Shown: positions 7,834-64,000, counted from the stretch's first letter. The stretch: DNA of 64,000 nucleotides from a virus (IMGVR_UViG_3300026522_000024:32001-96000), one strand, 5' to 3'. Made by a program: numbers and translations. Notes: generated by a model not told the origin, from the letters alone.

Positions 7834-8601
7834 ATGAAAAAGACCTATGAAATGAACGGAAAGACTTATGCAACCCTGAGTGCTATTGCGAAGGAACTGG
7901 GAATTGCCCGCATTCGTTCCAATCAGCTGGACAAGTATGGCATCAAGAAAGTTACCTCTGATGACGTGAAGAAGGCTGACGACACTGTAGTTACCAATGA
8001 AGTTCCTGCTACTGTTGACGTTGCTGCAGACAAGGCAGACGACAAGGCAGACGACAAGGCAGACGACAAGGCAGACGACAAGGCAGACAAGAAGGTTGAT
8101 GCTCCTGCTACTACTGTTGACACCGCTACGGACAAGGCAGACGAAGCAGACAAGAAGGTTGATGCTCCTGCTAAGAAGGCTAAGACCACCAAGAAGGTTG
8201 TTAAGACTGGGACTGCTGAGGACATTGCTGAAGTCGAGAAAAACGTAGTTGACATGAACGCACGTGAGCTGGGCAAGGCAGTTACTAACTTTACGGTGGA
8301 TGCATTGGTAACCATGGTGAAGAATGTTGATGGCAACACCTGGGATTCCATCAAGAATGCTCCTATTCGTAAGATGCGTCTCATCATGGAACTCAAGAAG
8401 CAGTATTTCCCTGATGAAGTACGTCAGGCTGCTCCTGCTAAGGTGTCTCCTTGGAAGGCAATTACTACTGAGGTTTTGAAGAAGGCAGCTAAGAAGCAGA
8501 AGATTAGCTGGGCTGAGTGCGACAATGATAGCATTAACCGCATGCGTATTATCATGGCTCTGAAGAAGAAGGGAGTGCAGGCAGAGGATTTGAATAAGTA
8601 A
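7834..8601 (+). CDS. Lys/Ala-rich putative DNA-binding protein with DKAD repeats and two HeH-like C-terminal modules
   Basis: Strong RBS, strongly biased codons; IRKMRLIMELKK and INRMRIIMALKK modules. Confidence 0.75.
   Translation: MKKTYEMNGKTYATLSAIAKELGIARIRSNQLDKYGIKKVTSDDVKKADDTVVTNEVPATVDVAADKADDKADDKADDKADDKADKKVDAPATTVDTATDKADEADKKVDAPAKKAKTTKKVVKTGTAEDIAEVEKNVVDMNARELGKAVTNFTVDALVTMVKNVDGNTWDSIKNAPIRKMRLIMELKKQYFPDEVRQAAPAKVSPWKAITTEVLKKAAKKQKISWAECDNDSINRMRIIMALKKKGVQAEDLNK
8029..8088 (+). repeat. Tandem repeat (GACAAGGCAGAC)x5
   Basis: Five exact 12-bp units encoding DKAD. Confidence 0.95.
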
Positions 8602-8649
8602 ACAAAACATGGAAAGTAGTGGGGCAGCTATAGTTGCTGCCCCTGTGAG

Positions 8650-8961
8650 GTGATAAATATGAGCACTAAATACTTGATTCACGCTTTTAGCAGTACTCAG
8701 AGATTGGTAGCTACTAAGAAAAAGCCTGGTGATTGGCTTCTCACTAAAGAGTGGCGTTCAAATGCTAAAGAGGAATGGAGGGTTGGTAAAGGCATTTCCC
8801 TTCCAAGGGTAGCAGGCAAGAGTGTAGCTAATGACCTTGGATACCTTCTGGTGAATGATGGTTTAGTACAAGGTTTTGAGATTATTGACGAGAGAACAGG
8901 AGAGTCAAAACATGAAGAGAGTACCCATAGTAGGCATAAGAAGTCCAATTCAAGGAATTGA
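8650..8961 (+). CDS. Hypothetical protein
   Basis: ORF with RBS GAGGTG. Confidence 0.6.
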   Translation: MINMSTKYLIHAFSSTQRLVATKKKPGDWLLTKEWRSNAKEEWRVGKGISLPRVAGKSVANDLGYLLVNDGLVQGFEIIDERTGESKHEESTHSRHKKSNSRN

Positions 8962-9589
8962 GCGAACTCCAATACATATTGAGCGTATTCCTTGGGATGA
9001 TGTTTATAAGAAATACGTCAATTACATCAAATTCGCAGCAAAGTCTACTGCTCAGGATAATGAGGGCAATTCTGCTGAGGACTTGTTTCAGGAAGGTCAG
9101 TTGATTATGTATAACTGCTACCTTTTGTACGGAGATAAGCCTATTGAGGAATTTGGGGCTATCCTCAAAGCGTCAGTCTGGCGTAAGATGCGTGAAATCT
9201 GTAACAGGAAGCAGTTTATACAGGTTAACATTGAAGATGCTTATGACATCGGATATGATGAAGACACTGTAGAAAACATATATCAAGAGCAGAAACTTGC
9301 TCACCTGGCTAGTATGTTAGAGGATAACCCTATTGCTTTGACTATTCTCAAGGAGTTTGTTTCTCCATCTGCTAGAACCATATGGGAAGCAAAGATGGAT
9401 GTAGCCCGCAAAGAAATGTTGCGTTCTCAGGATTATAAGGTGAGCGTGCCCAAACAGGTTCAGCCTACTAAGGCATCTATCCAGAGAGCAATGGAGATAC
9501 CTAAGTCCAAATTTGAACAGCATTTCAAGGAACTGAAGGAAGCAATGCTAGTGGTATATCCAGAGCATCAGTTACAAATGTGCGTGTAA
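8912..9589 (+). CDS. Phage RNA polymerase sigma-factor-like protein
   Basis: Region-2-like YKKYVNYIK...AEDLFQEGQL and C-terminal HTH-like segment; RBS AGGAG before ATG 8912. Confidence 0.7.
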   Translation: MKRVPIVGIRSPIQGIERTPIHIERIPWDDVYKKYVNYIKFAAKSTAQDNEGNSAEDLFQEGQLIMYNCYLLYGDKPIEEFGAILKASVWRKMREICNRKQFIQVNIEDAYDIGYDEDTVENIYQEQKLAHLASMLEDNPIALTILKEFVSPSARTIWEAKMDVARKEMLRSQDYKVSVPKQVQPTKASIQRAMEIPKSKFEQHFKELKEAMLVVYPEHQLQMCV

Positions 9590-9641
9590 GTTTATTTGAG
9601 TTATCTTATTTTATGTTAGTTACAATAAGGAGGAATATGTT

Positions 9642-10049
9642 ATGGCAACTATTGAAGAAATGATTAAGAATTCCAGCTGCTTTGGTGTAGCTTTTGATGG
9701 TTCTGTACGTGAGTGCAAAATTTGCGAGGTTAAACTGAAGTGTGAGAGCAAGTGCCGTTTGGGTGGGGATTCTAAGCCTGCATCAGTTAATGTGGCTACT
9801 GCAGATGAAGTTACTCACAGCAACAACAAGAAGGCAACCAATAAGAAGTCTGTTCCTGTTAAGAAAGCAGCAAAGCCTAAAGCTGAATATGCTGATGATA
9901 TGCCTGACTTCAAGTCTATGTCTGCTGATGAGATTGAGCAACTGGCAGAGGAACGTGGCATTGACATGTCTCAGTTTGAGAAGTATAAGGCAGCAAACAT
10001 CAGACGCATGCGTGTCACAATGGCTCTGAAAAAGACTTACGAAAAGTAA
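9642..10049 (+). CDS. Cys-rich Zn-binding + HeH-like domain protein
   Basis: CFG...ECKIC...C...C cluster; C-terminal LAEERGID...NIRRMRVTMALKK. Confidence 0.7.
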   Translation: MATIEEMIKNSSCFGVAFDGSVRECKICEVKLKCESKCRLGGDSKPASVNVATADEVTHSNNKKATNKKSVPVKKAAKPKAEYADDMPDFKSMSADEIEQLAEERGIDMSQFEKYKAANIRRMRVTMALKKTYEK

Positions 10050-10115
10050 CAATTTGAAGGCGGTGGCGGTGGGATAACTCTCACCGCCATTTTGTTGTAT
10101 AGGAGGTAATAATCA

Positions 10116-10766
10116 ATGGCTACTATGGAAGAAAAAATCAGGAAAGCTATGGCTGAATTAGGACTTGACCCAGATGGTGGGGATGATAATGATAAGTCTA
10201 CAAAGGTTACAGTAAAGACAAAGCAATTAGAATCCACTAAAAAAGAGTCAGTTTCCAAACCAACACAAGCGGTTGTACCTAATAAGAAGGCTGATGTTTC
10301 GGAAAAATCAAAAAGGGCTGCAGTAGTGACAGAGAAGAAAGTAGAAACACAAACTGATGTGCAAGTGCCTCAGTCTATTTTCATGAAAATCAGTGGCAAT
10401 CACATGGTTCTCCTTATTCCAGAAGGGTTGGAATTGGATAAGCAGGTTATTGGAGGTAATACATATAACACTGTAGCTGTACAAGTGCCAGATTTTGGTG
10501 GTAAACTGTATGAAATGCCATTGATAAATACTGCTCACACTGTTTCTAAGTCCAATACTGTAGTTAGAGTGCCTATTATTATGCCTAAGACTGAGCCCAG
10601 TCAATTTTCTAACGATGAGTATCTGGAAAACTTATTGAAGGAGAAAAGTAGACTAGATGCTGAAATTAAGGCTGCTAGAGCAAGTCATGATGATAACCTT
10701 GTCAATGATTTAAGAAAGCAACGTAGAAGCATTAGAGCACGTATAAACCATATTGTGGAGGGTTGA
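10116..10766 (+). CDS. Hypothetical protein
   Basis: RBS AGGAGG; 216 aa. Confidence 0.75.
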   Translation: MATMEEKIRKAMAELGLDPDGGDDNDKSTKVTVKTKQLESTKKESVSKPTQAVVPNKKADVSEKSKRAAVVTEKKVETQTDVQVPQSIFMKISGNHMVLLIPEGLELDKQVIGGNTYNTVAVQVPDFGGKLYEMPLINTAHTVSKSNTVVRVPIIMPKTEPSQFSNDEYLENLLKEKSRLDAEIKAARASHDDNLVNDLRKQRRSIRARINHIVEG

Positions 10767-10767
10767 C

Positions 10768-11493
10768 ATGAACAGAGTGCCTATAATACATAGGGTGTCT
10801 ATTTATCGTAGGCACTCTATTTATCGTAGAACATCAGTATACCGCAGAAAGCCATTATACCCAGAGTTGTCTAAGTTTAGGACTTGTGAGTTATTGTATA
10901 ATAACAGTAATTGGTGTAAAAATAATGGCAAATACATCATTAGATGTATGGAAGCAGGTTTTGATTTCAATAAGGTAGCTAATGCTATTTCTTACGGAAG
11001 AGAACACAATAAAACTGCTAGACTTATAGTGGATTTTGAGGTAGATGAAAGAATACTGTGGGCTGCTTCTTATGCTGACCATAATATATTACAGATAAAT
11101 GTATTTTTGTGTAAAAAAGACCTGTCATGGGTAGGAAGATTATCCCATATTGCTAATAAGTGTGGAATGATTGTAGTATTATTCTTGTTTCCGATTGTAC
11201 CTAACAGGATAATGCCACATCACGTGCTTAGAGTCATTGATATGGTAAAGAATCTGCCCTCTCAGTATATAATGCTTAGGTTTGCTGAGTCTAAATCAAG
11301 ATTACTAGAACACGGTAATTGGATGAATATCAATGGAAAAGCTGTAGATAAGAGATTTATACAAGTAAATAATGAAAACTGGGGTTGTTCTCCTTTATTT
11401 AAGGAGAGATTTATGAAACTAATCATGGAGTATACAGAACCAAGGGGAATTAAAATTGGAGTTTGCGGAGATAGCGAAAACTGCATCATGTAA
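10768..11493 (+). CDS. Hypothetical protein, possibly a degenerate radical-SAM/SPL-like barrel
   Basis: LFPIVP and GIKIGVC resemble SPL-like C-terminal segments, but there is no CxxxCxxC motif; Arg-rich N-terminal repeats. Confidence 0.4.
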   Translation: MNRVPIIHRVSIYRRHSIYRRTSVYRRKPLYPELSKFRTCELLYNNSNWCKNNGKYIIRCMEAGFDFNKVANAISYGREHNKTARLIVDFEVDERILWAASYADHNILQINVFLCKKDLSWVGRLSHIANKCGMIVVLFLFPIVPNRIMPHHVLRVIDMVKNLPSQYIMLRFAESKSRLLEHGNWMNINGKAVDKRFIQVNNENWGCSPLFKERFMKLIMEYTEPRGIKIGVCGDSENCIM

Positions 11494-11515
11494 TAGGATT
11501 GTGAGGTGAGTACAT

Positions 11516-13327
11516 TTGGCTTTGAGACAAGTAGAACTAGATAAATTTTTATCAGTATCATTTCCTTGTAGATTAAATAAGCCTTTGTTGGTAAACATCA
11601 GAGGTTGTAATGGTTCTGGAAAATCCACAATACCTATTATGATGATGAATACTGACCCTTATGCCTTTGAGGTAGTTTGGTATAGAAATAACAAAAAACG
11701 TGTAATCTGTACAGTATTCCCATCATATGAATTCTTGGCTGTAGGTCATTATCACTCTAAGTGTGGAGGAATGGATTCAATAAAGGACACTCAGGAGGTC
11801 AAAGACTCAGTACAAGCATTGTGGAACTGTAAAATGAACATACTTATGGAAGGAATCATGGCGTCTACAGTATATAAGACTTACGCTGACTTGTTTTCTG
11901 AATTAAATAGTGATAACTCCAGAAAAGTATTGGTGTTTAATTTAGTACCTCCACTAAGCACATGCTTAGATAGGATACAGTCTAGGAATGGTGGTAAACC
12001 TATTAAGAGTGAATTGGTAGAGGGAAAATGGAAAACTGTATGTAGAAACCATGAAAAGTTTTCTGACGCAGGTTTTACTAGCATAAAGGCTGATAACTCT
12101 GAGATTTCTATAGGTGACACATTAAGTTGGTTCTTTGAAAAAATCAATTTTCGTACAGATACCTTTACAGATAAAATGATAAGTGCTTCTACTGCGGTAG
12201 AGTCAATTGAATATACAGATAAAAATGGAAAAATGAAAAGAATCAGGTCACTGCCAAAGTTTACTGGTACTCCAGAGCCAATTTATATACCTACTAAAGA
12301 GGATACAGAAGGGTATGAGTGGTCTAAATATTACAAAAAGCCCAATAAAAATATGGTTATAAATTGGGATAACATGAGGCTATATTGGTACTGGATAACT
12401 GAGAGAATGAGGATTTGGCACAGGAGAACAATTCTTAGAGAGCCATTCCCTTGGACTGAAGACAAGATTCTACAGGATAACAAATTCACTAATTGCTTCA
12501 GGGATTTGGATAGAGGTACACTTGTATACATCAGGGAGATTCTAAGGAAATTAGATGAACCTTGTGAAGATTTAACAAAGCGTATTAAGGAAGTCATACT
12601 AAACACACAAGTATATAGAATGTTTCTAAAGTATTCTACTTGGAAAAAGATAGGATTCTTGTATCTGGATACCTATGAGGAACAATGGGAGCAAGCCAAG
12701 GAAAAACTAAGAACTGCTAAGGCTAATGGTGAGGTTATATGGCACGCAGCTTATTTTGTTACAGACTTAAAAGCTGCCAATCCTAACCCTAAGACCAATC
12801 ATGACAAGCTGGAAAATGCTTTATGCTTATGTGAAATGTTTTATGAGTACTTAGACGACACCTATGAATATGTCATAAGTCATGATATGAAGGATTGTTT
12901 AGAGCATCTTGGACATTTTCCAGAGATAAAAGGATTCTCAGTATATGAATGGCTGTGTGATTGGGGGATGGCTTATAGATACGTGAAGAACTATTTTGTA
13001 AACTGGACAGACGACAGTTATGTAAATGTTGGTCCAGGCAATAGAATGGGGATGGATTTAATCTTTGAGGACAAAGGAGGTTTGGACTACCCAGAGTTGA
13101 ATTTCTATCTCAGAGCCTCATGGAAACACTACATGAAAAGGTATGGGTACTATGATGAGTTCATTTCTTTAATTCCGAAATGGATGAATGGTAGTGTAAC
13201 TGTTAGAACCATAGAGCATGATATATGTGAGACCCAGAAATACCTGAATATATACTATGGTATAGGCAGGACTAAAAGCAAGTTCAAGAATGAATCCAGA
13301 AATAACCTAGATTCACTAGTACTGTAG
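11516..13327 (+). CDS. 5-hydroxymethyluracil DNA kinase (P-loop kinase fused to aGPT-Pplase1/helical domain)
   Basis: NIRGCNGSGKST P-loop; ERMRIW..R....PWTEDKILQDNKFTNCFRDLDR signature; GPG and EHDICE motifs. Confidence 0.85.
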   Translation: MALRQVELDKFLSVSFPCRLNKPLLVNIRGCNGSGKSTIPIMMMNTDPYAFEVVWYRNNKKRVICTVFPSYEFLAVGHYHSKCGGMDSIKDTQEVKDSVQALWNCKMNILMEGIMASTVYKTYADLFSELNSDNSRKVLVFNLVPPLSTCLDRIQSRNGGKPIKSELVEGKWKTVCRNHEKFSDAGFTSIKADNSEISIGDTLSWFFEKINFRTDTFTDKMISASTAVESIEYTDKNGKMKRIRSLPKFTGTPEPIYIPTKEDTEGYEWSKYYKKPNKNMVINWDNMRLYWYWITERMRIWHRRTILREPFPWTEDKILQDNKFTNCFRDLDRGTLVYIREILRKLDEPCEDLTKRIKEVILNTQVYRMFLKYSTWKKIGFLYLDTYEEQWEQAKEKLRTAKANGEVIWHAAYFVTDLKAANPNPKTNHDKLENALCLCEMFYEYLDDTYEYVISHDMKDCLEHLGHFPEIKGFSVYEWLCDWGMAYRYVKNYFVNWTDDSYVNVGPGNRMGMDLIFEDKGGLDYPELNFYLRASWKHYMKRYGYYDEFISLIPKWMNGSVTVRTIEHDICETQKYLNIYYGIGRTKSKFKNESRNNLDSLVL

Positions 13328-13339
13328 GAGGTATCAATC

Positions 13340-13600
13340 ATGGCATACAAGAAGTCAGAAGAATTTTCCTATGAAATCACTAAGCATTTGTGTGACTTGT
13401 CCGAGAAGAACAAGGGATGGGTGAAGCAGCTGAATACCGTAAAATGGAATAACTCTAAGGAAGAAGTGTACGACATACGCAGCTGGCATTATCCTGATGG
13501 TTCTGATACTCCTGATAGGATGTCTAAAGGAATTTCACTTTCTTATGAAGAATTTGCGATTTTGTGTCAATCTGCTTATGATGAAGGCATTGTCAGCTAA
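13340..13600 (+). CDS. YdbC/PC4-family ssDNA-binding protein
   Basis: KGWVKQLNTVKWN, YDIRSW, RMSKGISLS. Confidence 0.85.
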   Translation: MAYKKSEEFSYEITKHLCDLSEKNKGWVKQLNTVKWNNSKEEVYDIRSWHYPDGSDTPDRMSKGISLSYEEFAILCQSAYDEGIVS

Positions 13601-13636
13601 ACAGATATTATTACTCATGTGAAGGGAGTGATAAAC

Positions 13637-14239
13637 ATGGTTGATAAGGACTTTTATGACTTGGTAAATAATGGAGTCAAGAGGTCAAGTGACAACTGGG
13701 GTACTGGAGTAATTCTTCAGCACCCTGTTACCAATAAAATCCTTCTAGCCAGAAGAACAGATGGAGATAAGCAGTATGCCTCACCTGGTGGTAAAGTAGA
13801 GTACCAGGAGAGTCCAAAAGAAGGAATACTGAGGGAGTGCAGAGAGGAAAGTAACGTAACCATAAAGGATATGTGTTGTTATGATTTCCGTACTCACTCT
13901 AGCCCTAATGGTAAGAATTGGGTTGACTTCCTGTTTTACTCTAATAACTTTGATGACTCTGACATACGGAATCAGCCATCAGAAATGGAAGAATTTTCTT
14001 GGTTCACAGTAGAGGATGCCTTGAATTTGGACTTGTTCCCACCAACCAAGGCAGCATTAAAGAGAGCAGTAGAGTTGGGACTCACAGCAGGTAGTTGTGA
14101 TGAACAGAATTACATTCCATTTGTAGACTGCCCATCTACTCCTTCTGCTGTACAGGATAGCTGCTGCTGTGCTTATTCTTTTGTAGAACCAGAGAAGATT
14201 TTTGATAAGGGTGATGCTCCTTATTTACCTTGGGACTAA
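13637..14239 (+). CDS. Nudix hydrolase
   Basis: Nudix box GGKVEYQESPKEGILRECREES. Confidence 0.9.
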   Translation: MVDKDFYDLVNNGVKRSSDNWGTGVILQHPVTNKILLARRTDGDKQYASPGGKVEYQESPKEGILRECREESNVTIKDMCCYDFRTHSSPNGKNWVDFLFYSNNFDDSDIRNQPSEMEEFSWFTVEDALNLDLFPPTKAALKRAVELGLTAGSCDEQNYIPFVDCPSTPSAVQDSCCCAYSFVEPEKIFDKGDAPYLPWD

Positions 14240-14269
14240 GCACACCAAATAATCTATGATTGATTGTAG

Positions 14270-14325
14270 ATACCTCTTTATTTAGTTAGGTGTAGTTTTA
14301 TAGCATCTACTAAATAAGGAGGTAT
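14270..14325 (+). promoter_or_regulatory. RBS-sequestering hairpin upstream of the hydroxymethylase
   Basis: ATACCTCTTTATTTAGTTAGGTGT pairs with GCATCTACTAAATAAGGAGGTAT, covering AGGAGG. Confidence 0.8.
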
Positions 14326-14329
14326 TTTT

Positions 14330-49241: not shown

Positions 49242-50909
49242 ATGAGCATTGAGCGTGTGCCCATAATCACTAGAATTAACACATCTGAAATAGAGGAACA
49301 GATGTGTAATAAATTCGCTGACCTATGGGCATTAAAATACAAGACAATTAAGGGCAAGCCTACTACATTTATTAGTAGTAATCCATTCAAGCATAGACCG
49401 TGGCAGTCAGCTATACTTAGGGATACTCACCCAAATAAAGTCATAGAGAAGTCAAGGCAGCTTGGTATGTCTGAAGTAGGACTATCAGAGGTTTTACACT
49501 TCCTTACTACTAAGGAAAATGTAAAGGCTATGTACATATTTCCTAGGAATCAACAGATGGTAGACTTTTCCAAGTCCAGAATAAAGCCAGTGTTACAAAC
49601 TCCATACTTTTTGGACAAAGTAGATAAAACTATGGACAGTGTCACTACCAAAAAGATATTGGATAATTGGTTATTCATGCGTTCTGGCTGGGAAGGTGCT
49701 ACTGGTGAGGGTGTTGATACTGATTTCTTAGCTATAGATGAGTATGACCGCATGAAGGATGGAGTGGAATTATCCTTCCAAGAAGGATTATCAGCCAGCA
49801 AGTACGGATACATGCGTAGGTGGAGTACTCCTTCCATTCCAGGTAGAGGTGTAAACGGTGCTATAAGTAAGTCTGACCAGATGAAGTATATTTGGACTTG
49901 TGAACACTGTGGTACTAAACAATTCCTTACGTTTGATGATAATCTCATTCAGGTCAATCCTAATGGTGTAAACTCTGCTACTCAGGAGATAGCTGATGGC
50001 ACTTTCATTATAGGATGTAAGAAGTGTAAAAAACCTATCAATAGAATGGGAATAGGAGAATGGGTGCCAATGTACCCATCTATTCATGAGGTTAGAGGGT
50101 ATCATATCAGCCAGCTTGATGCTGCTTGGATAAGTGCTGATAACATCATGAGACGTAGATTCAGCTACTCATCGAAGCAGTTGTTCTACAATTACGTTAT
50201 AGGAGAGCCATTTGCTTCAGAAGGAATCAAGATAACAGAAGCTGATATCAAGGCATCCATCCGCTTGGGACGTGAGCAAGTGGCTAGGACTTCAGCATAT
50301 GCTGCCATAGTAGCAGGTATAGACTGGGGTGACGTCAGCTACATGTGTATCCTAGGAGTAAAGAGCAACGGCGTAGTAGACTTGCTCAATCTTCATAGCG
50401 TACATGATGACAGTAAAGTACCTCTGAAAGCAGTTGCATACTTCTGTGCCATTCTTAGGTCATACCAACCTAACATAGTGGTAGCAGATGCTGGGTACGG
50501 TGCTGATAAAAATAGCTATGGGTATACACAATTCCCTGCTGCTTGGTATTCCTGCTACTGGACTACAAATAAAGACGCACACAGCAAAACCAGATTCATT
50601 GACCAATGGAATGAATCTTCCAGAGAGGTAACTGTAGATAAGACCTTATCTATACAGAGAGTGCTTCACTCTATAAAGGGGCATCTTATAGGGCTGTTCC
50701 CGTGGTGTGAGAAGATTGCTATGTTTACTCAGCACCTCAAAAATACGGTTATCATGGATGAAGAAAGTGATGGACTAGTATATAGCAGGGCAACTAGAGT
50801 TGGTCCAGACCACTACTGCTGTGCTTTAGCATATGGACTTATAGGTGTAAACAAGCTGACTAATTACAATATTAATGTCAATAACTCCACATCTGTAGAG
50901 TTTATCTAA
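49242..50909 (+). CDS. Terminase large subunit
   Basis: KSRQLGMSE, IDEYD, STP, CEHC/CKKC Zn site, GYHISQL, GIDWG, PDHY. Confidence 0.92.
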   Translation: MSIERVPIITRINTSEIEEQMCNKFADLWALKYKTIKGKPTTFISSNPFKHRPWQSAILRDTHPNKVIEKSRQLGMSEVGLSEVLHFLTTKENVKAMYIFPRNQQMVDFSKSRIKPVLQTPYFLDKVDKTMDSVTTKKILDNWLFMRSGWEGATGEGVDTDFLAIDEYDRMKDGVELSFQEGLSASKYGYMRRWSTPSIPGRGVNGAISKSDQMKYIWTCEHCGTKQFLTFDDNLIQVNPNGVNSATQEIADGTFIIGCKKCKKPINRMGIGEWVPMYPSIHEVRGYHISQLDAAWISADNIMRRRFSYSSKQLFYNYVIGEPFASEGIKITEADIKASIRLGREQVARTSAYAAIVAGIDWGDVSYMCILGVKSNGVVDLLNLHSVHDDSKVPLKAVAYFCAILRSYQPNIVVADAGYGADKNSYGYTQFPAAWYSCYWTTNKDAHSKTRFIDQWNESSREVTVDKTLSIQRVLHSIKGHLIGLFPWCEKIAMFTQHLKNTVIMDEESDGLVYSRATRVGPDHYCCALAYGLIGVNKLTNYNINVNNSTSVEFI

Positions 50910-53567: not shown

Positions 53568-54524
53568 ATGATAACACAGTTTGTAAACAAGGGTACAGAC
53601 TTAGAGGTGCTGAATAAGTCCTATGAATCTATGCCTCTGGAACAAGAAGAACTTGCTAAGGCACTAAAGAAAGATGGTCTTGTACTGGTTGATGTACAGG
53701 TAAATGGTAAGCATGGTACGTACACTCGTAAGCAGTGGAAGAAAGCTAGTGATGTAAAGAAGAATGAAGGAAAATCCTCTAAGGGTGCTCCAGATGCTGA
53801 TAAGCAGAAGGCTATTCCACAGGTTATTAAGGGTAAGCACATGAGTGACCTGAAGGATAATCTGAGGGAACATGGTCTTGTTTTGGACGGTGCATATGGC
53901 AGAAAGATACGTGATGACGAAGAAGTTATTATGTATGATAAAGATAAGAATACTTACACTGCTAAAGCTAATGTATACTCAGATGGTGGTGTAGAACTGC
54001 GTAAAATTACCAAAGAAAAGAAGGAAAAAACAGCAACTGATAATGGTAATGGCAAGCAACAGGATAGCGGCAGCCCATATCCAGACTACGTGAACAAGAC
54101 TAATGTTGGAGTACCTAAAGCACATAGTTCCTCCTATTTCTCTGAGAAGAAGGCAATTGAGTTTGCTAAGCAATTGCATGATAATGGTGCTACTAATATT
54201 GAGATTAGTAGTGCTGAAGATGCATTCAATCAGACTCAGTACCGTGTTGCTTGGGATAAGGAAGAAAAGAAACAGAGTGACACAAAGGCAGGTAATAAGC
54301 CTACCAAGAAAGCAGCTGCTACTTCAAAAGTTAAACAGGATTCTTCATCTAATGTAAGTGTTCCTAAGACCAAAGCAGACATTCAAAGCATGCTTGCTTC
54401 TGGTAAATCCAGAAATGATATTATTGAGCTGGCTAAGAAGTCAGGCATCAGCTGGAAGGAAAATGGCCACGAAGGCATCAACTGGATGAGGTGCTGCATG
54501 GCTTTGACTAAGGCATCTAAATAA
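53568..54524 (+). CDS. Leader-bearing Lys-rich protein with C-terminal HeH-like module (putative virion-internal protein)
   Basis: FVNKGTD...LAKALKKDGLV..VQVNGKHGTYTRKQW leader; GINWMRCCMAL. Confidence 0.65.
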   Translation: MITQFVNKGTDLEVLNKSYESMPLEQEELAKALKKDGLVLVDVQVNGKHGTYTRKQWKKASDVKKNEGKSSKGAPDADKQKAIPQVIKGKHMSDLKDNLREHGLVLDGAYGRKIRDDEEVIMYDKDKNTYTAKANVYSDGGVELRKITKEKKEKTATDNGNGKQQDSGSPYPDYVNKTNVGVPKAHSSSYFSEKKAIEFAKQLHDNGATNIEISSAEDAFNQTQYRVAWDKEEKKQSDTKAGNKPTKKAAATSKVKQDSSSNVSVPKTKADIQSMLASGKSRNDIIELAKKSGISWKENGHEGINWMRCCMALTKASK

Positions 54525-55332: not shown

Positions 55333-56421
55333 ATGCATTTTATAAACAACCAATCAGACATCAATACTATCAATTTCCTGTCTAAGTCTATACCAATGGA
55401 AACCATGGAAAAGGCACTAGATAGAACTGGTCTTGTACAGAAAGAGGTACAGTACAAGACCAGTACAGGAAAGATAGCTACTAGGAAGCAGTGGGTAAGA
55501 GAAGGAGAGGAACAGACTGCTGTTAAACCTCCTAAAAAGCAACCTAGACCGCAAGTTGAGGCTACTGACCACAACATAACGGAAAAGACTGCTCACCTGA
55601 AACCTCTTCAGGAAGGAGAAAAGCTGCCTGATTACTTTACTGGAGAGCATGCAGTACCTCCTAACTGGAGGAAGGTTATGTACAGTCCAGACCCAAATGC
55701 TAATCTGTTAGCTATAGGTAAGGATGGACAGAACAGAACTGTATACTTGTACCATAAGGACTTTGTAGCTAGCAAGTCCAACGAGAAGTTTAGCAGAGTC
55801 AGAAACTTGATGAAAAACCGTGACAATATCCTTAATTCAATTAAGGAGTTGAAAGAATCCAACCCAGAGGTGTCTGACTGCCTTAATCTTATATTCCATA
55901 TGGGTACTAGACCTGGCAGCACAGCAGACACCAAGTCAGTGAAGGAAGCACGTGGGGCTACAACACTGAAGGGTGAGAACGTGGTTGTGGAAGGTGACAA
56001 TGTATACCTAGATTTCACAGGAAAGAAGGGTGTAGCACAGCGTCACAAGGTTACTGATTCCTACCTGAAGACTATGCTAGTACAGCGTAAAAAGAAGGCA
56101 GGAGACAATGGTGACCTGTTCAATACCACGGATGACCAGCTTAGAAAAGCACTGAAACCTCTTGGACTTCACCCAAAAGATTTACGTACTATGTTAGCCA
56201 CTCATATGGCTAAGCAGATGCTCAAAGACCTTCCTGTAGCGAATAACGCAAAGGAAATGACTAAACTGCGTAACCAAGTAGGTGACAAAGTCTGCTCTGT
56301 ACTAGGTAATCAGCGTACAATGGCTTTGAATAGCTACATAGACCCAGAAGTATTCATAGCTCATAGCCCAGACGGCATGAGTGACTGGAAGTCAAATCAA
56401 TCCAAGAAGAAGGTGAAATAA
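55333..56421 (+). CDS. DNA topoisomerase IB with N-terminal leader
   Basis: PPNW...GKDGQNR..YLYH, RPGS, GATTL, FTGKKG, KDLRT, LGN.....NSYIDP (catalytic Tyr). Confidence 0.9.
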   Translation: MHFINNQSDINTINFLSKSIPMETMEKALDRTGLVQKEVQYKTSTGKIATRKQWVREGEEQTAVKPPKKQPRPQVEATDHNITEKTAHLKPLQEGEKLPDYFTGEHAVPPNWRKVMYSPDPNANLLAIGKDGQNRTVYLYHKDFVASKSNEKFSRVRNLMKNRDNILNSIKELKESNPEVSDCLNLIFHMGTRPGSTADTKSVKEARGATTLKGENVVVEGDNVYLDFTGKKGVAQRHKVTDSYLKTMLVQRKKKAGDNGDLFNTTDDQLRKALKPLGLHPKDLRTMLATHMAKQMLKDLPVANNAKEMTKLRNQVGDKVCSVLGNQRTMALNSYIDPEVFIAHSPDGMSDWKSNQSKKKVK

Positions 56422-56566: not shown

Positions 56567-56578
56567 CGTAACATTGCG

Positions 56579-56898: not shown

Positions 56899-57020
56899 AT
56901 GTAAACCTCAAAAAATTCTATGAATAGATGATACACATTATGCAGGGTTCTGATTCACTATCCTTTGTAAAATGTACAGTTTTTACTTGAAAAATTTTAT
57001 ATGAACTTTATTTTTTCTAC

Positions 57021-57049
57021 TTTACTCTTGGGATGAAAAGAGATATAAT
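57021..57049 (+). promoter_or_regulatory. sigmaA-type (early) promoter
   Basis: TTTACT-17 bp-TATAAT with ATGAAA in the spacer. Confidence 0.72.
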
Positions 57050-57107
57050 GTTTTTAGGAACACCTTATGTAAACCACAAAGCAGTTGAGTGAAAAGGAGA
57101 GATTGCT

Positions 57108-57836
57108 ATGAAGAGTACAGAATTGAAAGAAAAGCTAGACAAAGCTATTGAAAGAGTCCACAAGATTGAGGGTACTATTGAGAGGCATAAGAAGCAGGCA
57201 GACAAAAAGCTCACGGAACTGAAGAAACATAACTGGTCTGATAATCCTATGGACCACTCAGGTACTGGAAACCACGAAGCATACTGGTTAGCTTGTGAAT
57301 ATCAGGATAAGCTGAGTGACATGAAGAATTCACAGAAAAATCTGATTAAGGCTCAAGAAATAGCTAAAAACTGGGAGGACAAGTACAACAAGCAGCTGGA
57401 ACTAGAAAGACATTATCAGTTTGAGATACCTGAAGCCTTTAAGACATTGAAGGATATACTTGTAGAGAACTGGACTAAATTCGACTTAGAAGAACAGAAA
57501 CACTACTATAAGAAATACAAAGAGTTAGGGTACAAAACCTTCATCCAGCGTTATAGCAGGAGCAGATGGGACTACCTCAGAAGCCATAATGAACAAGATT
57601 TCAGAGAAGAAAATGAGAAAGCTGCAGAAAACTGGATTTTAGACCTGTATAATAGAATCAAGAGAGAAACAGGAGAGATTGTTACTTGGGATAACATCAC
57701 AGCAACTCCTAAAGGATTGAACGGATACATAAAAGGAAAGTTGGGAGCAGTCAACGTAGAGACCATTATGGCTGGTGGATATAACATCCAGAGACTTCAT
57801 TACAGAGTAATTCTTCATAAGGTAAAGGAGGCATAA
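57108..57836 (+). CDS. Conserved phage hypothetical protein
   Basis: Coiled coil plus GLNG...VETIMAGGYNIQRLHYR. Confidence 0.75.
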   Translation: MKSTELKEKLDKAIERVHKIEGTIERHKKQADKKLTELKKHNWSDNPMDHSGTGNHEAYWLACEYQDKLSDMKNSQKNLIKAQEIAKNWEDKYNKQLELERHYQFEIPEAFKTLKDILVENWTKFDLEEQKHYYKKYKELGYKTFIQRYSRSRWDYLRSHNEQDFREENEKAAENWILDLYNRIKRETGEIVTWDNITATPKGLNGYIKGKLGAVNVETIMAGGYNIQRLHYRVILHKVKEA

Positions 57837-58179
57837 CTCAGATGAAAAATAACTGGAGAGTAGTTATCTATGATGACTCTATGAACACAGGTTGTACAGC
57901 AACTAAGGTATTCATGGATAACCTTAACAAAACCACCGCTAAGAAGATTGAGCGTTACATGAATCACAAGATGGAAGAGACAGAAATGTTTGATATCAGC
58001 TATGTAGCTGAAGAAGTGGCGTAATAACCTGCTGAGGTGAACCTTCAGACGGTTGATACTGGAAGGCAGCTGGGTGGTTTAGACATGTGGGCTGACCCAC
58101 CCAGTTGATGATAACCAGATTGATACTGAATGTTTGGAACCATATAGCAGAGATTCCTCACACTAAGGGGGTAACAACA

Positions 58180-60036
58180 ATGAAAGACTATAAAAATCAG
58201 ATAGCTGAATTGAAAGCAGACGTACACACCATCTGGAAACTGCAATGTCAGAACCTTTACAACAGCAAAAACCTTGGAGCATTGGCTGTACGTGAGTGCC
58301 TTCAGAATAGCATTGACGCTATAAGGACTGCTGAGAAGAACGGTGACATCGCTCAGGGTGAAGGATACATCAATATCAGCTGGGAGGGCAGCAACCTTAT
58401 TATTGAGGATAATGGAGTAGGGATGAACCTTCAGACCTTACATGACAAGTTTCTAACCCTTGGTGGGACTACTAAGGGTGATGAGAGTAATGTAGGCGGA
58501 TTTGGATTAGCTAAATCAGTTATCCTTGGATGCGGCAGTGGATTTAAGGTAGAAACCCAGGATAATGTGTTTACCAATGAAGACCTTGGTGTTAATCCTA
58601 TACAGAAACAGGATTACAGACAAGGCACACGCATTACCTTGAAGAACGTACAAGTTGGTAAGGGTAAGAGCATAGAAGATGATTCCGATAGATTTAAATA
58701 CGCTGTATACGATTATGTATTCACCAGCCAGATTCCTGAAGACATTAAGGTTACTGTAAATCATAAGGACTATGACTCCTATAAGAGATTTGTTCAGACT
58801 TCTTCTACTAGACGTGCACCTGCTGTATTTAACATTGGTAAAGACATCATACCAAAGAACACTAAAATCAGAGTAAATGTGTATAAGACCGCCAAGAATG
58901 ATTTCTCTGGATACCTGTATGTTAGACTGAGAGGACTGACCCAATTCAAGCAATACCTTAGCTGGAATGCTACTTTTCATGTAGTGCTTGATATAGACAC
59001 TAAGTTAGACCCACGTGACGTAGACTATCCATTCAGCACTAATAGAGAAGGACTGAAAGCACAGTATCAGGGTATTCTCTCAGCTATATCAGATAAGGTT
59101 AGTCAGTCACCAATTGCTATCTCAGACCACTCTAACTACAAGGAAACCTTCTATGATAACAAGACCAGCAATGCTGAGCGTAATAGAGTAATTGTTTCTC
59201 AGTTGATTTCTAAGGACTTGATGAAGGCTGCTAATACCGTATCTAAGGCAGTAGCTGGTATGATACCACAAGGAGGTTACACTGTTCCTTCTGTAGCTGA
59301 GAAAATTCAGCAACTAAATGAAGTAGTAGAGAAGGTAGCACACGAATGTGGTAGGACTAAAGATGAAGTGGTCAATGGTTTGAGCACCGAAAATCTTCAG
59401 TCTTTGAACAATCCGTTGGATTACTCTTGGATTGTATGGCAGGATAAGGATACTCATGTTAAGAGGATAAACAGCAGCACTCAGGTCAGCTTTATATTGG
59501 CTTGGGACAGCATCCTGAGATTGATGGCTAGCCATTCTCCTGAGTTGAATGGAAAAACCTTCTACCCTGGTATCATCGTTAGGAAAGATTACATGGGATT
59601 GTGCTTAGAAAAGAACATAGCTTCTTGTGGCACTAGACACTACATTATGATGAATCCATATTTGATTCCTAATGACGATGACCTGTCTATAGCCTTATAT
59701 TTGATGAACTTGGCATCACACGAACTTGCTCATTTAGCTTGCGGAACATATGAGGCTCACGGTGAGACATTCTCCTATACTAGAGAATCCATCATGAATC
59801 ACAATTTGGTTAACGTGAATGCTGTAATGAAGATGCTGCGTAGCATGGGATTTAAGAAACTTCTCAATAAAGTAGAGCAGAAGAAGCAGTCTGAGGATTA
59901 TTCTTATTTTACTTTGGACGACATTGTTGATATGGCAGAGAATAAGGGAATTGATGTACAGCAACTACAGGATAAGTATAGCAATCAACAGATTCTTAGG
60001 ATGAGACTCATAATGGCTATCAAAAAAGCAGGTTAA
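58180..60036 (+). CDS. GHKL (MORC/Hsp90-like) ATPase with HExxH zincin-like and HeH-like domains
   Basis: RECLQNSIDA, EDNGVGM, GGFGLAK, GTRI; HELAH...EAH; ILRMRLIMAIKK. Confidence 0.8.
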   Translation: MKDYKNQIAELKADVHTIWKLQCQNLYNSKNLGALAVRECLQNSIDAIRTAEKNGDIAQGEGYINISWEGSNLIIEDNGVGMNLQTLHDKFLTLGGTTKGDESNVGGFGLAKSVILGCGSGFKVETQDNVFTNEDLGVNPIQKQDYRQGTRITLKNVQVGKGKSIEDDSDRFKYAVYDYVFTSQIPEDIKVTVNHKDYDSYKRFVQTSSTRRAPAVFNIGKDIIPKNTKIRVNVYKTAKNDFSGYLYVRLRGLTQFKQYLSWNATFHVVLDIDTKLDPRDVDYPFSTNREGLKAQYQGILSAISDKVSQSPIAISDHSNYKETFYDNKTSNAERNRVIVSQLISKDLMKAANTVSKAVAGMIPQGGYTVPSVAEKIQQLNEVVEKVAHECGRTKDEVVNGLSTENLQSLNNPLDYSWIVWQDKDTHVKRINSSTQVSFILAWDSILRLMASHSPELNGKTFYPGIIVRKDYMGLCLEKNIASCGTRHYIMMNPYLIPNDDDLSIALYLMNLASHELAHLACGTYEAHGETFSYTRESIMNHNLVNVNAVMKMLRSMGFKKLLNKVEQKKQSEDYSYFTLDDIVDMAENKGIDVQQLQDKYSNQQILRMRLIMAIKKAG

Positions 60037-60112
60037 CACGGATTTGGCGGCAGTACATACTGCCGCCTTTATTTATATTATTTACTATATGTGTTTGAAA
60101 GGTGTGTGGAAT

Positions 60113-60328
60113 ATGCCTAAGATTATAATTGAATCCTCTGATAAGAGAGATACACAAGTAGATATAGAGGAAAAGCTAGAAAAGGCAGTGTCTGCCATTA
60201 GAGAACAACGTGAAGGAAAGCAATTTACAGACAATTTTCTTAGGGAAACTAAGGAAAAAGCTGATGTAGTAGTCAATAAGTTGTTTTCTAACATGGTCAA
60301 GGAAATCAATGAAGTATTAGCGAAATGA
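60113..60328 (+). CDS. Hypothetical protein
   Basis: ORF containing LEKA. Confidence 0.6.
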   Translation: MPKIIIESSDKRDTQVDIEEKLEKAVSAIREQREGKQFTDNFLRETKEKADVVVNKLFSNMVKEINEVLAK

Positions 60329-60337
60329 GGGAAAACC

Positions 60338-61462
60338 ATGGGAATCAACTTTGTAGATAAAGGCTCAGACTCAGCTCTAGTCAATCTTCTTCATGAAGAC
60401 TACTTGAAAAAGTCATTTCATCGTGAAGGATTGACTCCAGTTAGAGTGTCTGTTAATGGAAAACATGGTAATTACACTACTACTGTGTATAAGAATCTAA
60501 ATGAACACGGAAAGCAGGTCAGTAAAAACAAGCCTAGATTCAATCCTGATAAGGGTAAGAACACAGCTAGTAAGCTACAGAATAAGGACTTTATGTACAT
60601 GAATACAGCTACTGGTGATATATTATCACTGGATGAGGTAAAACGTGAGTACAATCAACTTCCTGAAAAGGAAAAGAAATCACATAAAACTCTTGATAGT
60701 TACCTAAAATCCACTTATTTTATTTCAAATGGAACTAACAAGACTTGTGATATGTACAGGATTGCTCCTGGCAAGTACACTAAGGAAAGAACACAGGCAG
60801 TCCATGAACCCATAGTACAAGATTATCTATCTAAAGCACAGGATGCTCCAGAAGATACCCCACCAATACTTTTCTTGTATGGCGGTGGAAGCGGCGTAGG
60901 CAAGTCCACAATAGTCAACTCTATAGTGAAGCCTATGTCTGATGAGTTAGGAGTAAACCTACTCAAAGTAGACTGTGATGACATTAAGGAGTTGCTTCCA
61001 GAGCATGAAATGTTTATGGCTCAAGATGAGCGTACTGCTGCTGGTAGGTTACACAGAGAATCTTCAGATATTACCAATAAGGTAATAGATGAGCTCACTA
61101 AGGCTAAAAAGTGCTTTGCATATGATGGTTGCATGGGAGACACTTCTAAGTACCAGAAAATTATCAATAAAGCTAGAGATAATGGATATTACGTACATAT
61201 CATAGCAGCAGATATTCCAGTAGATATGGCTATTGCTCGTGCTAAATCAAGGAGCAGAAAGATTGATGACGCTATATTCCATAAGACTCATACTGCTTTT
61301 GGAAATAATTTTTTGGATATAGCAGGGATGGCTGATTCGTTTGCGCTGTATGACAATTCTCAGGATAGTAATTTGCCACCTACATTAATTGTAGATGATA
61401 CTGGAATACGCAATGAAGAACTTTATGAGCGTTTTCTTATGAAAACAGATGGGGAGGCATAA
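60338..61462 (+). CDS. Zeta-toxin-like P-loop kinase with N-terminal leader
   Basis: YGGGSGVGKST, VDCDDIKELLPE, HRESS, YDG, RAKSR, LYDN. Confidence 0.8.
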   Translation: MGINFVDKGSDSALVNLLHEDYLKKSFHREGLTPVRVSVNGKHGNYTTTVYKNLNEHGKQVSKNKPRFNPDKGKNTASKLQNKDFMYMNTATGDILSLDEVKREYNQLPEKEKKSHKTLDSYLKSTYFISNGTNKTCDMYRIAPGKYTKERTQAVHEPIVQDYLSKAQDAPEDTPPILFLYGGGSGVGKSTIVNSIVKPMSDELGVNLLKVDCDDIKELLPEHEMFMAQDERTAAGRLHRESSDITNKVIDELTKAKKCFAYDGCMGDTSKYQKIINKARDNGYYVHIIAADIPVDMAIARAKSRSRKIDDAIFHKTHTAFGNNFLDIAGMADSFALYDNSQDSNLPPTLIVDDTGIRNEELYERFLMKTDGEA

Positions 61463-61464
61463 AT

Positions 61465-61629
61465 ATGAGCACTAAGACCTTTAATAAAGAAAACATTGTA
61501 GCCTTGCGTAAGAAATATGAGAAAAACCCTGTTCAGCAAGATTTTGCTAACGACAAGTCAGTGTTTGAGTTTCCAGATGACATAACTGATGAGGAACTGG
61601 ATAAACACATTGAGAGAATGAAATCATAA
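61465..61629 (+). CDS. Small hypothetical protein (54 aa), candidate antitoxin
   Basis: ATG 3 nt after the kinase stop; RBS GGGGAGG; acidic C-terminal half. Confidence 0.6.
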   Translation: MSTKTFNKENIVALRKKYEKNPVQQDFANDKSVFEFPDDITDEELDKHIERMKS

Positions 61630-61648
61630 TAATTGGAGGAGATAAATC

Positions 61649-64000
61649 ATGATAAGGACTACAGATATTGCTTCCTATCTTGTAGACAAGGCTAAGTTAG
61701 ACCTAATGGGTGGTAGCTCCAATCTGGAAAAAGCACAGAGAGATTATTCTAAGCTGGTAAAGGTGCGTAGACCAGTAACACGTAAGGGTAAGACCTTTAT
61801 GCAAGACATATGGGTGCTGCCAGGTCAGGTTAAGTCATCAGATGTGGTTCTTCAGAACAAGCATAATGTCATTCCTTCTCTTAGTAGCCTCACTAAGCCA
61901 TCTGCTGGTATTTTGGATATGAAGTATTTTGCTGCTTTGGAGAACACTGATAGAACTAAAGCAATGGATTACTTGAAAGACCTTGGATTTACATGGAAGG
62001 TAAATAGCAATCCTAGTATAAACTGGATGTGGGCTAAGAGTGCTCTTAATAAATTCCTGAATGCTAATCCTTCTTTTAAGACCACCGCAGGTTCAATTTC
62101 TGGGTTGGTAGGTGGTCAGACTCAGGTTACTTCTCAGGCAACCAACGTAACAACGCAAATTGCTCAGAATAAGACACCTTCTACGGTGAATACGGCAACC
62201 ATGATGTCTTCTTTTACGCCTCAGCAGCAAGCAGAGATTAATGCTTGTGCTAATGGTAAAGAAAAATTCTCTAAGATTCGTGAAATTCTTGGTAAAGATG
62301 GAGTGATATCTTGGGCGAAGGCTAATGGTATTACTTGGAATGAGCATGCTCATAATGCTATTAATCTTATGAGACTTGGTATGGCTGTTAGGGAATGCTT
62401 TGATGCTATAAATGGGACAGTGTCTCCTGGTCCAATATCTAAGACTCCTACTAAGAAACAGCCTGCACCTGCTGCTCCTAAAATAGACCCAGATGAACTG
62501 CCTGTGCCTGCTAATGCTACAGAGCGTACTAAGAATTTGATTAAACACATAAATAACATGACAAGTGTAGCTGAGATTACTGATTGTACTAAGATGGGTA
62601 TGGTTCCAGAAGATGATGTAGCTAAGTCGTTTATTCTTGAGAAATTCCTTCCTTCATTTAAGTTATGGGTAGGTGGTGGTGCTCCTAAATCTGTTAAGGA
62701 TAAATGGGCAAAAGATACTGGTTCTAGTGCTTCTTCTATAAATACTTATGCTAAGACTCCATGTGATTGGGGTGAGAGAGCAGTAGATACTATGAAGTTG
62801 GCTGGGTATAAAAAAGATATGGCTTCACATAATATTAGTATCTCTTTTTCTGGATTTACTATGGGTAAAATGCTTTCTCCTAGACAATACATGGTATTTA
62901 AAGACCACAATAAAATGCTGCATTTTGGTAAATCATCAGAAAAGCCATTTGATATTATCAACAGCTTGAATGATACTTATTCTGACTATACAACCGATGA
63001 TTACAAAACTACTGACTCTTGGGGTACTACCATTAACCTCTACCCAACTAATCTTGGATATACTGGTTTAGACCCAGCTGAATACAGGAAAAAGTACAAT
63101 ATAGAAAAAGAAGGTTTTGTTAGATACCTCAGAAGAGTGCAAAAATCTAATCCAGGTTTGAGTTCTACAGTTCAGGAAATGATAACTACGTATGATGAGA
63201 CTATGAAATTGGCTGGATATAATCCTAATTTGCTTTCATATGTTCAGAAAAATGATTGGGATGATACAGCTCAACCTACATACTGGTCTTCAAGATTTGA
63301 TAGTAGTTTAAGGTTAAATAATTTTTCTCCAGCTGATGCAAAAAAAGCTGTAGAAATCATAGAATTACAGTATAACACAGTTATTTCTGAATTAGAAAAA
63401 GCTGGTTATTCACAACAGGTTATTGCTGATACCTTGGGTTACAAATGGGGTTCAGGCTATCTTGATAACTTTAAGGTAGTTGATAGAAGTTCAGGTTCTA
63501 CCTCCACTCTTGCTACTCTAAATATAGCTAATTTGTTACCAGATGAAGCTAAAAGATGGAATTACGCAGCAGCTTCATATGCTTATTGCAGATACTGCAA
63601 GGAAAACGGTATAGAAAATAAATCTGGTAATGGGACAAAAGAGTATGCTTGGTTGGAGCAGGTAAAGCAATTATCTCAGATGGATAAAGTTACATATGAA
63701 AAGATTAACTCTAATTTAGAGAAACTGTATGGCTTTAGCAATAATAATGGCGTAATACAACCTACAGATAACAAGGACTATGACTCAATTTGGAGTAACC
63801 TTATTTTAACAAGTAATATGGTTGATATGCACCACAAAATGGCAGTTTCAGCTAGAAGTAATACTGCTAGTCCCTTGAATAAAAGGGGAACAGAATATCA
63901 AGGTAATTATGATTATTATAGTGGTATGGCTATGAAAGATGATGCTAAAATGCGTATAAAGCAGTATGGTAACTATACTGGGAGTACTGCTTCTACGTAT
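61649..64000 (+). CDS. Large leader-bearing protein with two HeH-like modules, runs off the window
   Basis: RBS GGAGGAG; MIRTTDIASYLVDKAKLDLMGGSSNLEKAQRDYSKLVKVRRPVTRKGKTFMQDIW; no stop seen to the window end, hence absent from the ORF track. Confidence 0.85.
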   Translation, partial: MIRTTDIASYLVDKAKLDLMGGSSNLEKAQRDYSKLVKVRRPVTRKGKTFMQDIWVLPGQVKSSDVVLQNKHNVIPSLSSLTKPSAGILDMKYFAALENTDRTKAMDYLKDLGFTWKVNSNPSINWMWAKSALNKFLNANPSFKTTAGSISGLVGGQTQVTSQATNVTTQIAQNKTPSTVNTATMMSSFTPQQQAEINACANGKEKFSKIREILGKDGVISWAKANGITWNEHAHNAINLMRLGMAVRECFDAINGTVSPGPISKTPTKKQPAPAAPKIDPDELPVPANATERTKNLIKHINNMTSVAEITDCTKMGMVPEDDVAKSFILEKFLPSFKLWVGGGAPKSVKDKWAKDTGSSASSINTYAKTPCDWGERAVDTMKLAGYKKDMASHNISISFSGFTMGKMLSPRQYMVFKDHNKMLHFGKSSEKPFDIINSLNDTYSDYTTDDYKTTDSWGTTINLYPTNLGYTGLDPAEYRKKYNIEKEGFVRYLRRVQKSNPGLSSTVQEMITTYDETMKLAGYNPNLLSYVQKNDWDDTAQPTYWSSRFDSSLRLNNFSPADAKKAVEIIELQYNTVISELEKAGYSQQVIADTLGYKWGSGYLDNFKVVDRSSGSTSTLATLNIANLLPDEAKRWNYAAASYAYCRYCKENGIENKSGNGTKEYAWLEQVKQLSQMDKVTYEKINSNLEKLYGFSNNNGVIQPTDNKDYDSIWSNLILTSNMVDMHHKMAVSARSNTASPLNKRGTEYQGNYDYYSGMAMKDDAKMRIKQYGNYTGSTASTY

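Follow-up and report, generated by a model that had tools for sequence, protein, structure and literature searches.

A Gp27-CT-type module reused in five phage proteins, and its proposed docking on host RNA polymerase

The DNA analysed here (hereafter, the window) is a stretch of 64,000 nucleotides of viral origin (IMGVR_UViG_3300026522_000024), corresponding to bases 32001-96000 of one phage contig of 116,104 bp. Translations and a motif scan revealed seven copies of a module of about 44 residues, distributed over five genes of the + strand and all placed inside long open reading frames (ORFs). Judged by homology, this module is a domain of the type that forms the C terminus of protein Gp27 of phage SPO1 (Gp27-CT), and its family is, to judge by the label on its database relatives, already catalogued as Pfam PF26856. 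We consider it probable that the module is a portable docking piece, which puts its carriers on the host RNA polymerase. Polymerase binding is known only for SPO1 Gp27-CT, and we infer by analogy that it extends to all seven copies. The findings behind the docking reading are the homology to Gp27-CT, two carriers that are orthologous to SPO1 regulators and lie in the same gene order, the predicted two-helix fold and the conserved fusions to enzymes.

The module, its family and its predicted fold

A preliminary description of this DNA had proposed that one small helical module is reused across five proteins. The seven segments that it picked out are exactly those found here, and a profile hidden Markov model (HMM) confirms them. 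The first carrier, a Gp25.1/Gp44-like early regulator of 255 residues (7834..8601), has two copies, at 8275..8406 and 8443..8574. The Gp27 orthologue, of 135 residues (9642..10049), has one at 9909..10040. A protein of 318 residues (53568..54524) and a GHKL ATPase protein (58180..60036) also have one each, at 54387..54518 and 59902..60033, respectively. The last carrier, whose gene starts at 61649 and which is predicted to end in an ADP-ribosyltransferase (ART) domain, has two, at 61928..62059 and 62270..62401. All seven copies are on the + strand.

A loose pattern for the second helix of the module gave exactly seven matches across the six frames of the window, each of them in a + strand coding frame. 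In a search of the 1597 six-frame ORFs of the whole 116,104-bp contig, the HMM built from the seven copies recovered those seven and no others; the best of the remaining matches had an E value of 1.5. When each copy in turn was left out of the profile, six of the seven were recovered, each as the best non-training match, with E values ranging from 3e-11 for the copy of the 318-residue protein to 1e-4 for the second copy of the ART protein; the copy of the GHKL protein and the second copy of the Gp25.1-like protein were found at 1e-8, the copy of the Gp27 orthologue at 5e-7, and the first copy of the Gp25.1-like protein at 3e-6. The seventh, at 61928..62059, in which W replaces the usual R and S the usual M, had a leave-one-out E value of 0.54. 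Homologues of the ART protein have a canonical copy at the equivalent position, the whole family having two copies at about positions 80-230, and we therefore conclude from the alignment that this is a degenerate module and not a chance resemblance. Pairwise identity among the seven copies is 19-34%, around a conserved helix-2 signature, I-x-R-M-R-x-x-M-A-L-K-K.

Profile searches extended the family well beyond this contig. A window-only profile, that is, one built from the window's seven copies alone, was run against 1.84 billion proteins and matched 519 cluster representatives with E values of 1e-3 or below, and we therefore take the module, on sequence evidence, to be a real and widespread domain. 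Most of the best 150 of these 519 representatives have two copies in tandem, often at about residues 80-230 of proteins that are 700-1340 residues long. A separate profile of 14 rows, used on a collection of 5.8 billion proteins, gave 499 matches, and the precomputed label PF26856.1 was present on 120 of the 120 matches listed. Proteins that bear the PF26856 label include close relatives of three of the carriers: one that is 97% identical to the C-terminal half of the Gp25.1-like protein (P0035), one that is 98% identical to the GHKL protein (P0129), and two that are 82-92% identical to the ART protein (P0057 and P0107). A Pfam scan of the five window proteins left the module unmatched, the library version used predating PF26856. 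Five PHROG families cover the module, two of them labelled 'transcriptional regulator'. Searched against PDB sequences, the module profile matched only a designed repeat protein and chance sequences.

A tblastn search with the first carrier (7834-8601) returned only SPO1-like phages of Bacillus, Lysinibacillus and Exiguobacterium, including SPO1 gene 51. By terminase, the nearest cultured relatives are, at about 50% identity, Nachito, Shanette, CP-51, JL, YungSlug, SP-10 and LysYB1, most of which are also among the phages with module matches by tblastn. A megablast of 9 kb of the window against GenBank phages gave no match.

The module is predicted to be an autonomous small fold of about 40-45 residues, with two alpha-helices joined by a loop in a helix-extended loop-helix (HeH)-like shape. 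For residues 145-255 of the Gp25.1-like protein, modelled together with 65 relatives, AlphaFold2 (AF2) gave two helix-loop-helix units, with a predicted local distance difference test score (pLDDT) of 82.9. The helices span residues 11-22 and 32-47 of the modelled fragment in copy 1, and 68-77 and 88-101 (pLDDT above 90) in copy 2. The predicted template modelling score (pTM) of this tandem model is 0.52, and the relative placement of the two units is uncertain. The last 51 residues of the GHKL protein, modelled with 65 orthologues, gave a pLDDT of 89.8 and helices at 12-21, 26-32 and 36-50; in this subtype, the longer loop is predicted to form a short third helix.

The preliminary description had also noted that the spacing of the module recalls HeH, LEM and Rho N-terminal folds. 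At the level of structure this resemblance recurs. An exhaustive comparison of the single GHKL copy with 48,161 chains placed within its top 50 the LEM domain of emerin (root mean square deviation of 1.2 A over 39 residues), with a Z score of 5.2 that is below the reliable range and common for helical models, as well as the Rho N-terminal domain (Z 4.3), the LAP2 LEM domain (Z 3.8) and two SAP domains (Z 3.6-3.8), all likewise below that range. Sequence profiles did not follow: with E values of up to 1 allowed, Pfam Rho_N, SAP and LEM matched none of the five window proteins, and Rho_N gave only a sub-threshold match on SPO1 Gp27 (E 0.011, 16 bits compared to a cut-off of 24.9 bits). A Foldseek search of the PDB with the tandem model had no match at E<=0.001. 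A likeness to the HeH superfold is plausible at the fold level, but membership of Rho_N or SAP is not supported at the sequence level. In its predicted form, the module would have in common with LEM, Rho N-terminal and SAP domains two helices and an extended loop within about 40 residues, and LEM, like the prototype Gp27-CT, binds protein; it differs from them by its distinct helix-2 signature.

Relation to the transcription regulators of SPO1

When the SPO1 genome was searched with the window-only profile, seven clear module sites were found and almost nothing else was matched. One site is the C terminus of Gp27 (E 1.1e-12); the other six are in Gp51, Gp44 (E3) and Gp25.1, host-takeover or transcription proteins with two copies each, located one in each half of Gp51 and both in the C-terminal part of Gp44. 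The four SPO1 carriers are early proteins, linked to transcription control or host shut-off.

Gp27 is the prototype. It consists of a self-associating N-terminal domain, a Lys-rich disordered region and a C-terminal domain (residues 111-155), and the latter is monomeric and well folded by nuclear magnetic resonance (NMR), with two helices and a flexible loop (Yu et al. 2026, NAR gkag742, PMC13401047). Addition of Bacillus subtilis RNA polymerase strongly broadens the NMR peaks of Gp27-CT, and an AlphaFold3 model puts the domain on the beta subunit; the switch from early to middle promoters in vitro needs Gp27-CT, a construct devoid of it failing, and DNA binding by Gp27 was assigned to its Lys-rich disordered stretch rather than to the CT domain (Yu et al. 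2026, PMC13401047). The preliminary description had kept a shared protein-interaction module as its fallback, and it is this view that fits best, given the homology to a domain that binds the host polymerase.

The resemblance of the window's module to Gp27-CT lies in significant sequence homology, equal length and a two-helix layout, and for the protein encoded at 9642-10049 it extends to the whole architecture and to the position after a sigma factor gene. The copy of this protein (9909..10040) is 49% identical to the SPO1 Gp27 module and is, among the window copies, the closest to the domain studied experimentally. The difference is that here the domain is also found on a GHKL ATPase, on a PARP-type ART and on the 318-residue protein of the terminase-portal region. 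As a domain, the module is already known, with a Pfam entry and a prototype of solved structure. A text search of Yu et al. 2026 (PMC13401047) found no mention of its recurrence in other proteins, a search of the PDB sequence set with SPO1 Gp27 returned no entry, and no paper mentioning PF26856 came up in the literature search. As far as our searches show, the recurrence across Gp27, Gp44, Gp51, Gp25.1 and enzyme fusions is not found in the literature searched.

Two of the five carriers are, by sequence and gene order, orthologues of known SPO1 regulators, because genes matching SPO1 24.1, 25.1, 28 and 27 lie in the window in the same order. A 24.1-like gene (6944-7513; PDDEXK or 'RusA-like', without a module) is followed by the Gp25.1-like gene, a small ORF, a gene for a Gp28-like phage sigma factor without a module (8876..9589, + strand; BLASTP to SPO1 Gp28, E 1e-31, 32% identity) and, directly after the latter as in SPO1, the Gp27-like gene. 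This order, 24.1-25.1-26.1-28-27 in SPO1, is conserved despite a protein identity of about 30%. The Gp27 orthologue matches SPO1 Gp27 over its full length (BLASTP E 8e-21; PHROG 13400, E 8e-25), and has a Cys-rich N terminus, a Lys-rich disordered linker and a single C-terminal module.

The Gp25.1-like protein matches PHROG 13880 over its full length (E 2e-20) and SPO1 Gp25.1 by BLASTP (E 1e-11). It has the layout of SPO1 Gp44 and Gp25.1, that is, a small N-terminal domain of the DNA-binding type, a disordered linker, in this case of mixed charge and of the form (A-D-D-K)n, and two modules. Its family profile, in which Gp44 itself is included, matches the structure of the Gp44 N-terminal domain (6L6V). 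The A-D-D-K repeats of the linker are encoded at 8020-8100, and differ in their mixed charge from the corresponding linker of SPO1 Gp44, which is purely acidic and, according to Wang et al. 2021 (PMC8208478), mimics DNA.

Neither the middle promoter consensus of SPO1 (AGGAGA-N17-TTTNTTT) nor the late one (CGTTAGA-N18-GATATT) had a single match in the whole window, despite the presence of a Gp28 homologue. Promoter specificity has presumably diverged from that of SPO1.

Docking on RNA polymerase and the alternatives

According to the docking reading, each copy would place its carrier on the host RNA polymerase. The Gp25.1-like and Gp27-like regulators would, together with the Gp28-like sigma factor, reprogram transcription, in direct agreement with the SPO1 data. 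The PARP-type ART, the GHKL protein with its H-E-x-x-H motif and the 318-residue protein would be concentrated at the polymerase and would modify it or its partners, while tandem copies would allow bivalent binding of higher avidity. Gp44 deprived of its C-terminal region inhibits less strongly and, in two-hybrid assays with beta and beta', gives a reduced signal (Wang et al. 2021, PMC8208478), and it is in this region that the window-only profile locates two copies of the module.

Several points weigh against docking as a general function. For SPO1 Gp27-CT, the polymerase evidence consists of NMR broadening and a model, without a mapped interface. The C-terminal region of Gp44 appeared by one-dimensional (1D) NMR to be without a folded domain, and the polymerase contact of Gp44 was ascribed mainly to its acidic middle region (Wang et al. 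2021, PMC8208478); the 1D NMR result is a real discrepancy with the view that this region contains folded modules. The copies are just 19-34% identical to each other, and the specificity for a partner could differ between them. The HeH/SAP/Rho-N fold class often binds nucleic acids. Finally, the only indications that the carriers encoded near the terminase are packaged or injected are the position of their genes and a shared N-terminal leader.

The fold class brings up a different explanation, namely an HeH/SAP-like nucleic-acid tether, possibly with a preference for phage DNA containing bases derived from hydroxymethyluracil (hmU), which would hold the carriers on phage DNA. The preliminary description had favoured a tether of this kind, reading the hypermodified base. 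The weak resemblance in structure to the Rho N-terminal domain and to SAP domains, the sub-threshold Rho_N match on SPO1 Gp27, and the conserved R and K-K of helix 2 would suit this role, and the published electrophoretic mobility shift assays appear to have been done on ordinary DNA. However, the chain that matched best in the structural comparison is a LEM domain bound to a protein, BAF, and the DNA enzyme of the terminase-portal cluster, a type IB topoisomerase (TopIB, 55333-56421), has no module. Within Gp27 itself, DNA is bound by the Lys-rich disordered region, and the CT domain binds RNA polymerase (PMC13401047).

The distribution of the module among phages bears on the same question, and is best considered at two scales. 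Salmonella phage ViI, Pseudomonas phage M6 and Delftia phage PhiW-14 make hmU-derived hypermodified bases. Such bases are the topic of PMC8989533 and PMC5889632. At E<=0.1, the module profile found no match in these three phages, while a profile of the same family finds 7 to 8 sites in SPO1. The module does not generally accompany the hmU pathway. In the Herelleviridae, it was found in the SPO1, SP-10 and CP-51 lineages and the profile gave no match in Staphylococcus phage K, Listeria phage A511 or Bacillus phage Bastille, a presence and absence that parallels the use of hmU. The Gp28-type sigma factor, however, shows an equal parallel, as it was found in SPO1 but in none of K, A511 and Bastille, and the nearest relatives of the present phage mostly carry the module; the correlation is therefore confounded by descent. 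Co-occurrence with hmU is seen in the Herelleviridae, in this confounded form, and not in the three Gram-negative hmU phages. Given their lack of the module and the site of DNA binding in Gp27, the idea of a base-reading tether is not supported, and we regard nucleic-acid tethering as improbable.

The module could also be a 'sticker' for self- or hetero-association, gathering the module proteins in a complex or condensate, with most copies making no direct contact with RNA polymerase. Gp27 and Gp25.1 do condense in vitro, most carriers have tandem copies beside disordered linkers, which is a classic multivalent layout, and the conserved helix, which is rich in Met, might pack against another helix. 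On the other hand, Gp27-CT is monomeric by size-exclusion chromatography with multi-angle light scattering and does not phase separate alone, self-association being located in the N-terminal domain of Gp27 (PMC13401047), and the AF2 tandem units are not confidently packed together, as seen from the pTM given above. A sticker therefore seems to us an unlikely account of the module.

Carriers between the terminase and portal genes

The three other carriers are encoded between the large terminase gene (49242-50909) and the portal gene (genome positions 98461-100092), beyond which lie the prohead protease, scaffold and major capsid genes. The terminase-portal interval contains a 13-kb block of enzyme genes, encoding a helicase-like protein, TopIB, the GHKL protein, a zeta-toxin-like kinase and the PARP-type ART.

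The GHKL protein has an N-terminal Bergerat fold (Pfam HATPase_c_3, E 2.5e-6) and a C-terminal module. Its ORF spans 58105-60036 on the + strand, and a start at the ATG at 58180 is likely because the homologues have about 620 residues. In all, 91 homologues were found; the family is encoded on phage-sized metagenomic contigs, and distant bacterial relatives are without the module; a tblastn search of GenBank phages with the GHKL protein gave no match. A C-terminal module with a near-invariant helix 2 is present in 84 of the 92 family sequences, down to 34% identity, and this conservation indicates selection on the fusion. The family also has a near-invariant H-E-L-A-H ... E-A-H-G-E motif at residues ~548-567, that is, 60-90 residues before the C-terminal module. 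This zincin-like H-E-x-x-H region had no Pfam match and possibly belongs to a metallopeptidase-like domain that shares its tether with the ATPase.

The 318-residue protein (53568..54524, + strand) is made of an N-terminal leader that it shares with other proteins of the cluster, a middle part predicted with low confidence, and a C-terminal module. Leader and module are both retained in its homologues (P0287, P0349 and P0358). No recognisable domain was found in it by a Pfam scan or in the ESM Atlas, and for this protein and for the middle part of the GHKL protein the ESM Atlas returned only unnamed viral clusters, with template modelling (TM) scores below 0.5.

The ART protein has 1199 residues. 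Only the 5' part of its gene lies in the window (61649..64000, + strand), the gene continuing to a window-equivalent position of 65248 (genome position 97248). A leader-like N terminus is followed by two modules, a long middle region and a C-terminal domain that is, on the strength of its relatives, a PARP-type (H-Y-E) ADP-ribosyltransferase. Taken alone, the 1199-residue protein had no Pfam match, and its C terminus alone matched nothing in the PDB. However, BLASTP related it to P0070 (E 8e-59 and 3e-28), a protein that matches Pfam PARP, and the family profile matched tankyrase-1 (E 1.5e-8) and PARP1 (~1e-6) across the H, Y and E positions. Conserved motifs include F-H-G-T, G-x-G-V-Y-V-A and an invariant E1145. 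The association of the module with ADP-ribosyltransferases is recurrent, to judge from domain matches: among the 68 long module-bearing proteins of the wide search, 11 had Pfam PARP, 1 ADPrib_exo_Tox and 1 ART. Beyond the window end, at genome positions ~96060-96140, about 13 residues of the middle region are perfectly duplicated in tandem (K-Y-L-D-D-L-R-N-Y-Y-T-N twice), which looks like a recent, in-frame event.

If the modules dock on the polymerase, this protein would carry out polymerase-directed ADP-ribosylation by means of a catalytic domain of the PARP type, docking being left to a distinct domain, and would in function be like Alt and ModA of phage T4, which ADP-ribosylate RNA polymerase (background in PMC9503650). 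With T4 Alt, ModA and ModB, head-packaged ARTs and polyvalent proteins (Iyer et al. 2017, 2022), it has in common a phage ART gene beside packaging genes, plausibly aimed at the transcription machine. The T4 Alt enzyme is of the R-S-E type, whereas the window ART is of the H-Y-E PARP type and has a putative dedicated docking domain. The family of T4 Alt-like packaged ARTs is characterised by R-S-E catalysis, by a capsid-targeting peptide at the N terminus that the prohead protease removes, and by ADP-ribosylation of the alpha subunit of RNA polymerase; membership was rejected on account of the catalytic domain, and the likeness would be functional only.

The N-terminal leader, of about 60 residues, is common to the 318-residue protein (53568-53760), TopIB (55333-55520) and the zeta-like kinase (60338-60520); in the ART protein (61649-61830) only its second half is present. 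The leader also heads many large module-bearing proteins of metagenomes. Leader and module combine independently and occur alone or together: the GHKL protein has the module without the leader, TopIB and the zeta-like kinase the leader without the module.

The location of three carriers between terminase and portal could mean that the module is a capsid-loading or scaffold-binding tag, by which cargo enzymes are packaged into the head. Against this, the module is found on early, non-virion regulators (Gp27, Gp44, Gp51 and Gp25.1), it lies at C termini or in mid-protein, the GHKL protein has it without a leader, and the N-terminal leader of TopIB and the zeta-like kinase, which have no module, is a better candidate for packaging. 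The capsid-cargo tag was rejected as a reading of the module, given the early regulators that carry it and the leader-only genes of the cluster that do not; we judge it very improbable.

The terminase-portal carriers may be packaged and injected, as suggested by gene position and by the leader that two of them have in common with other genes of the cluster. A general argument for head packaging has been made for phage ARTs encoded near packaging genes (PMC9503650). Together with the leader and the terminase-portal position, this argument suggests injected, polymerase-directed enzymes, and we put forward, as a tentative and rather doubtful extension, that two address tags are combined: the N-terminal leader for head loading and injection, and the module for polymerase docking. 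The PARP-type ART and the 318-residue protein would then be injected with the DNA and reach the host polymerase ahead of all phage gene expression. Such a system would be a Gram-positive counterpart of T4 Alt made from different parts, in which the GHKL/H-E-x-x-H protein would serve as a remodeller or protease brought to the polymerase.

If docking on RNA polymerase is indeed the function of the module, four SPO1 takeover proteins that have been studied separately, Gp27, Gp44, Gp51 and Gp25.1, would be unified, and the importance of the C-terminal region of Gp44 would be explained. Phage enzymes targeted to the transcription machinery of Gram-positive hosts could also be searched for by means of the module sequence. 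Candidates would be PARP-type ARTs, the GHKL ATPase with its metalloprotease-like motif, and many large proteins that lack a known domain, among the 519 representatives. Each fusion would then be a hypothesis for a new modification of bacterial RNA polymerase.

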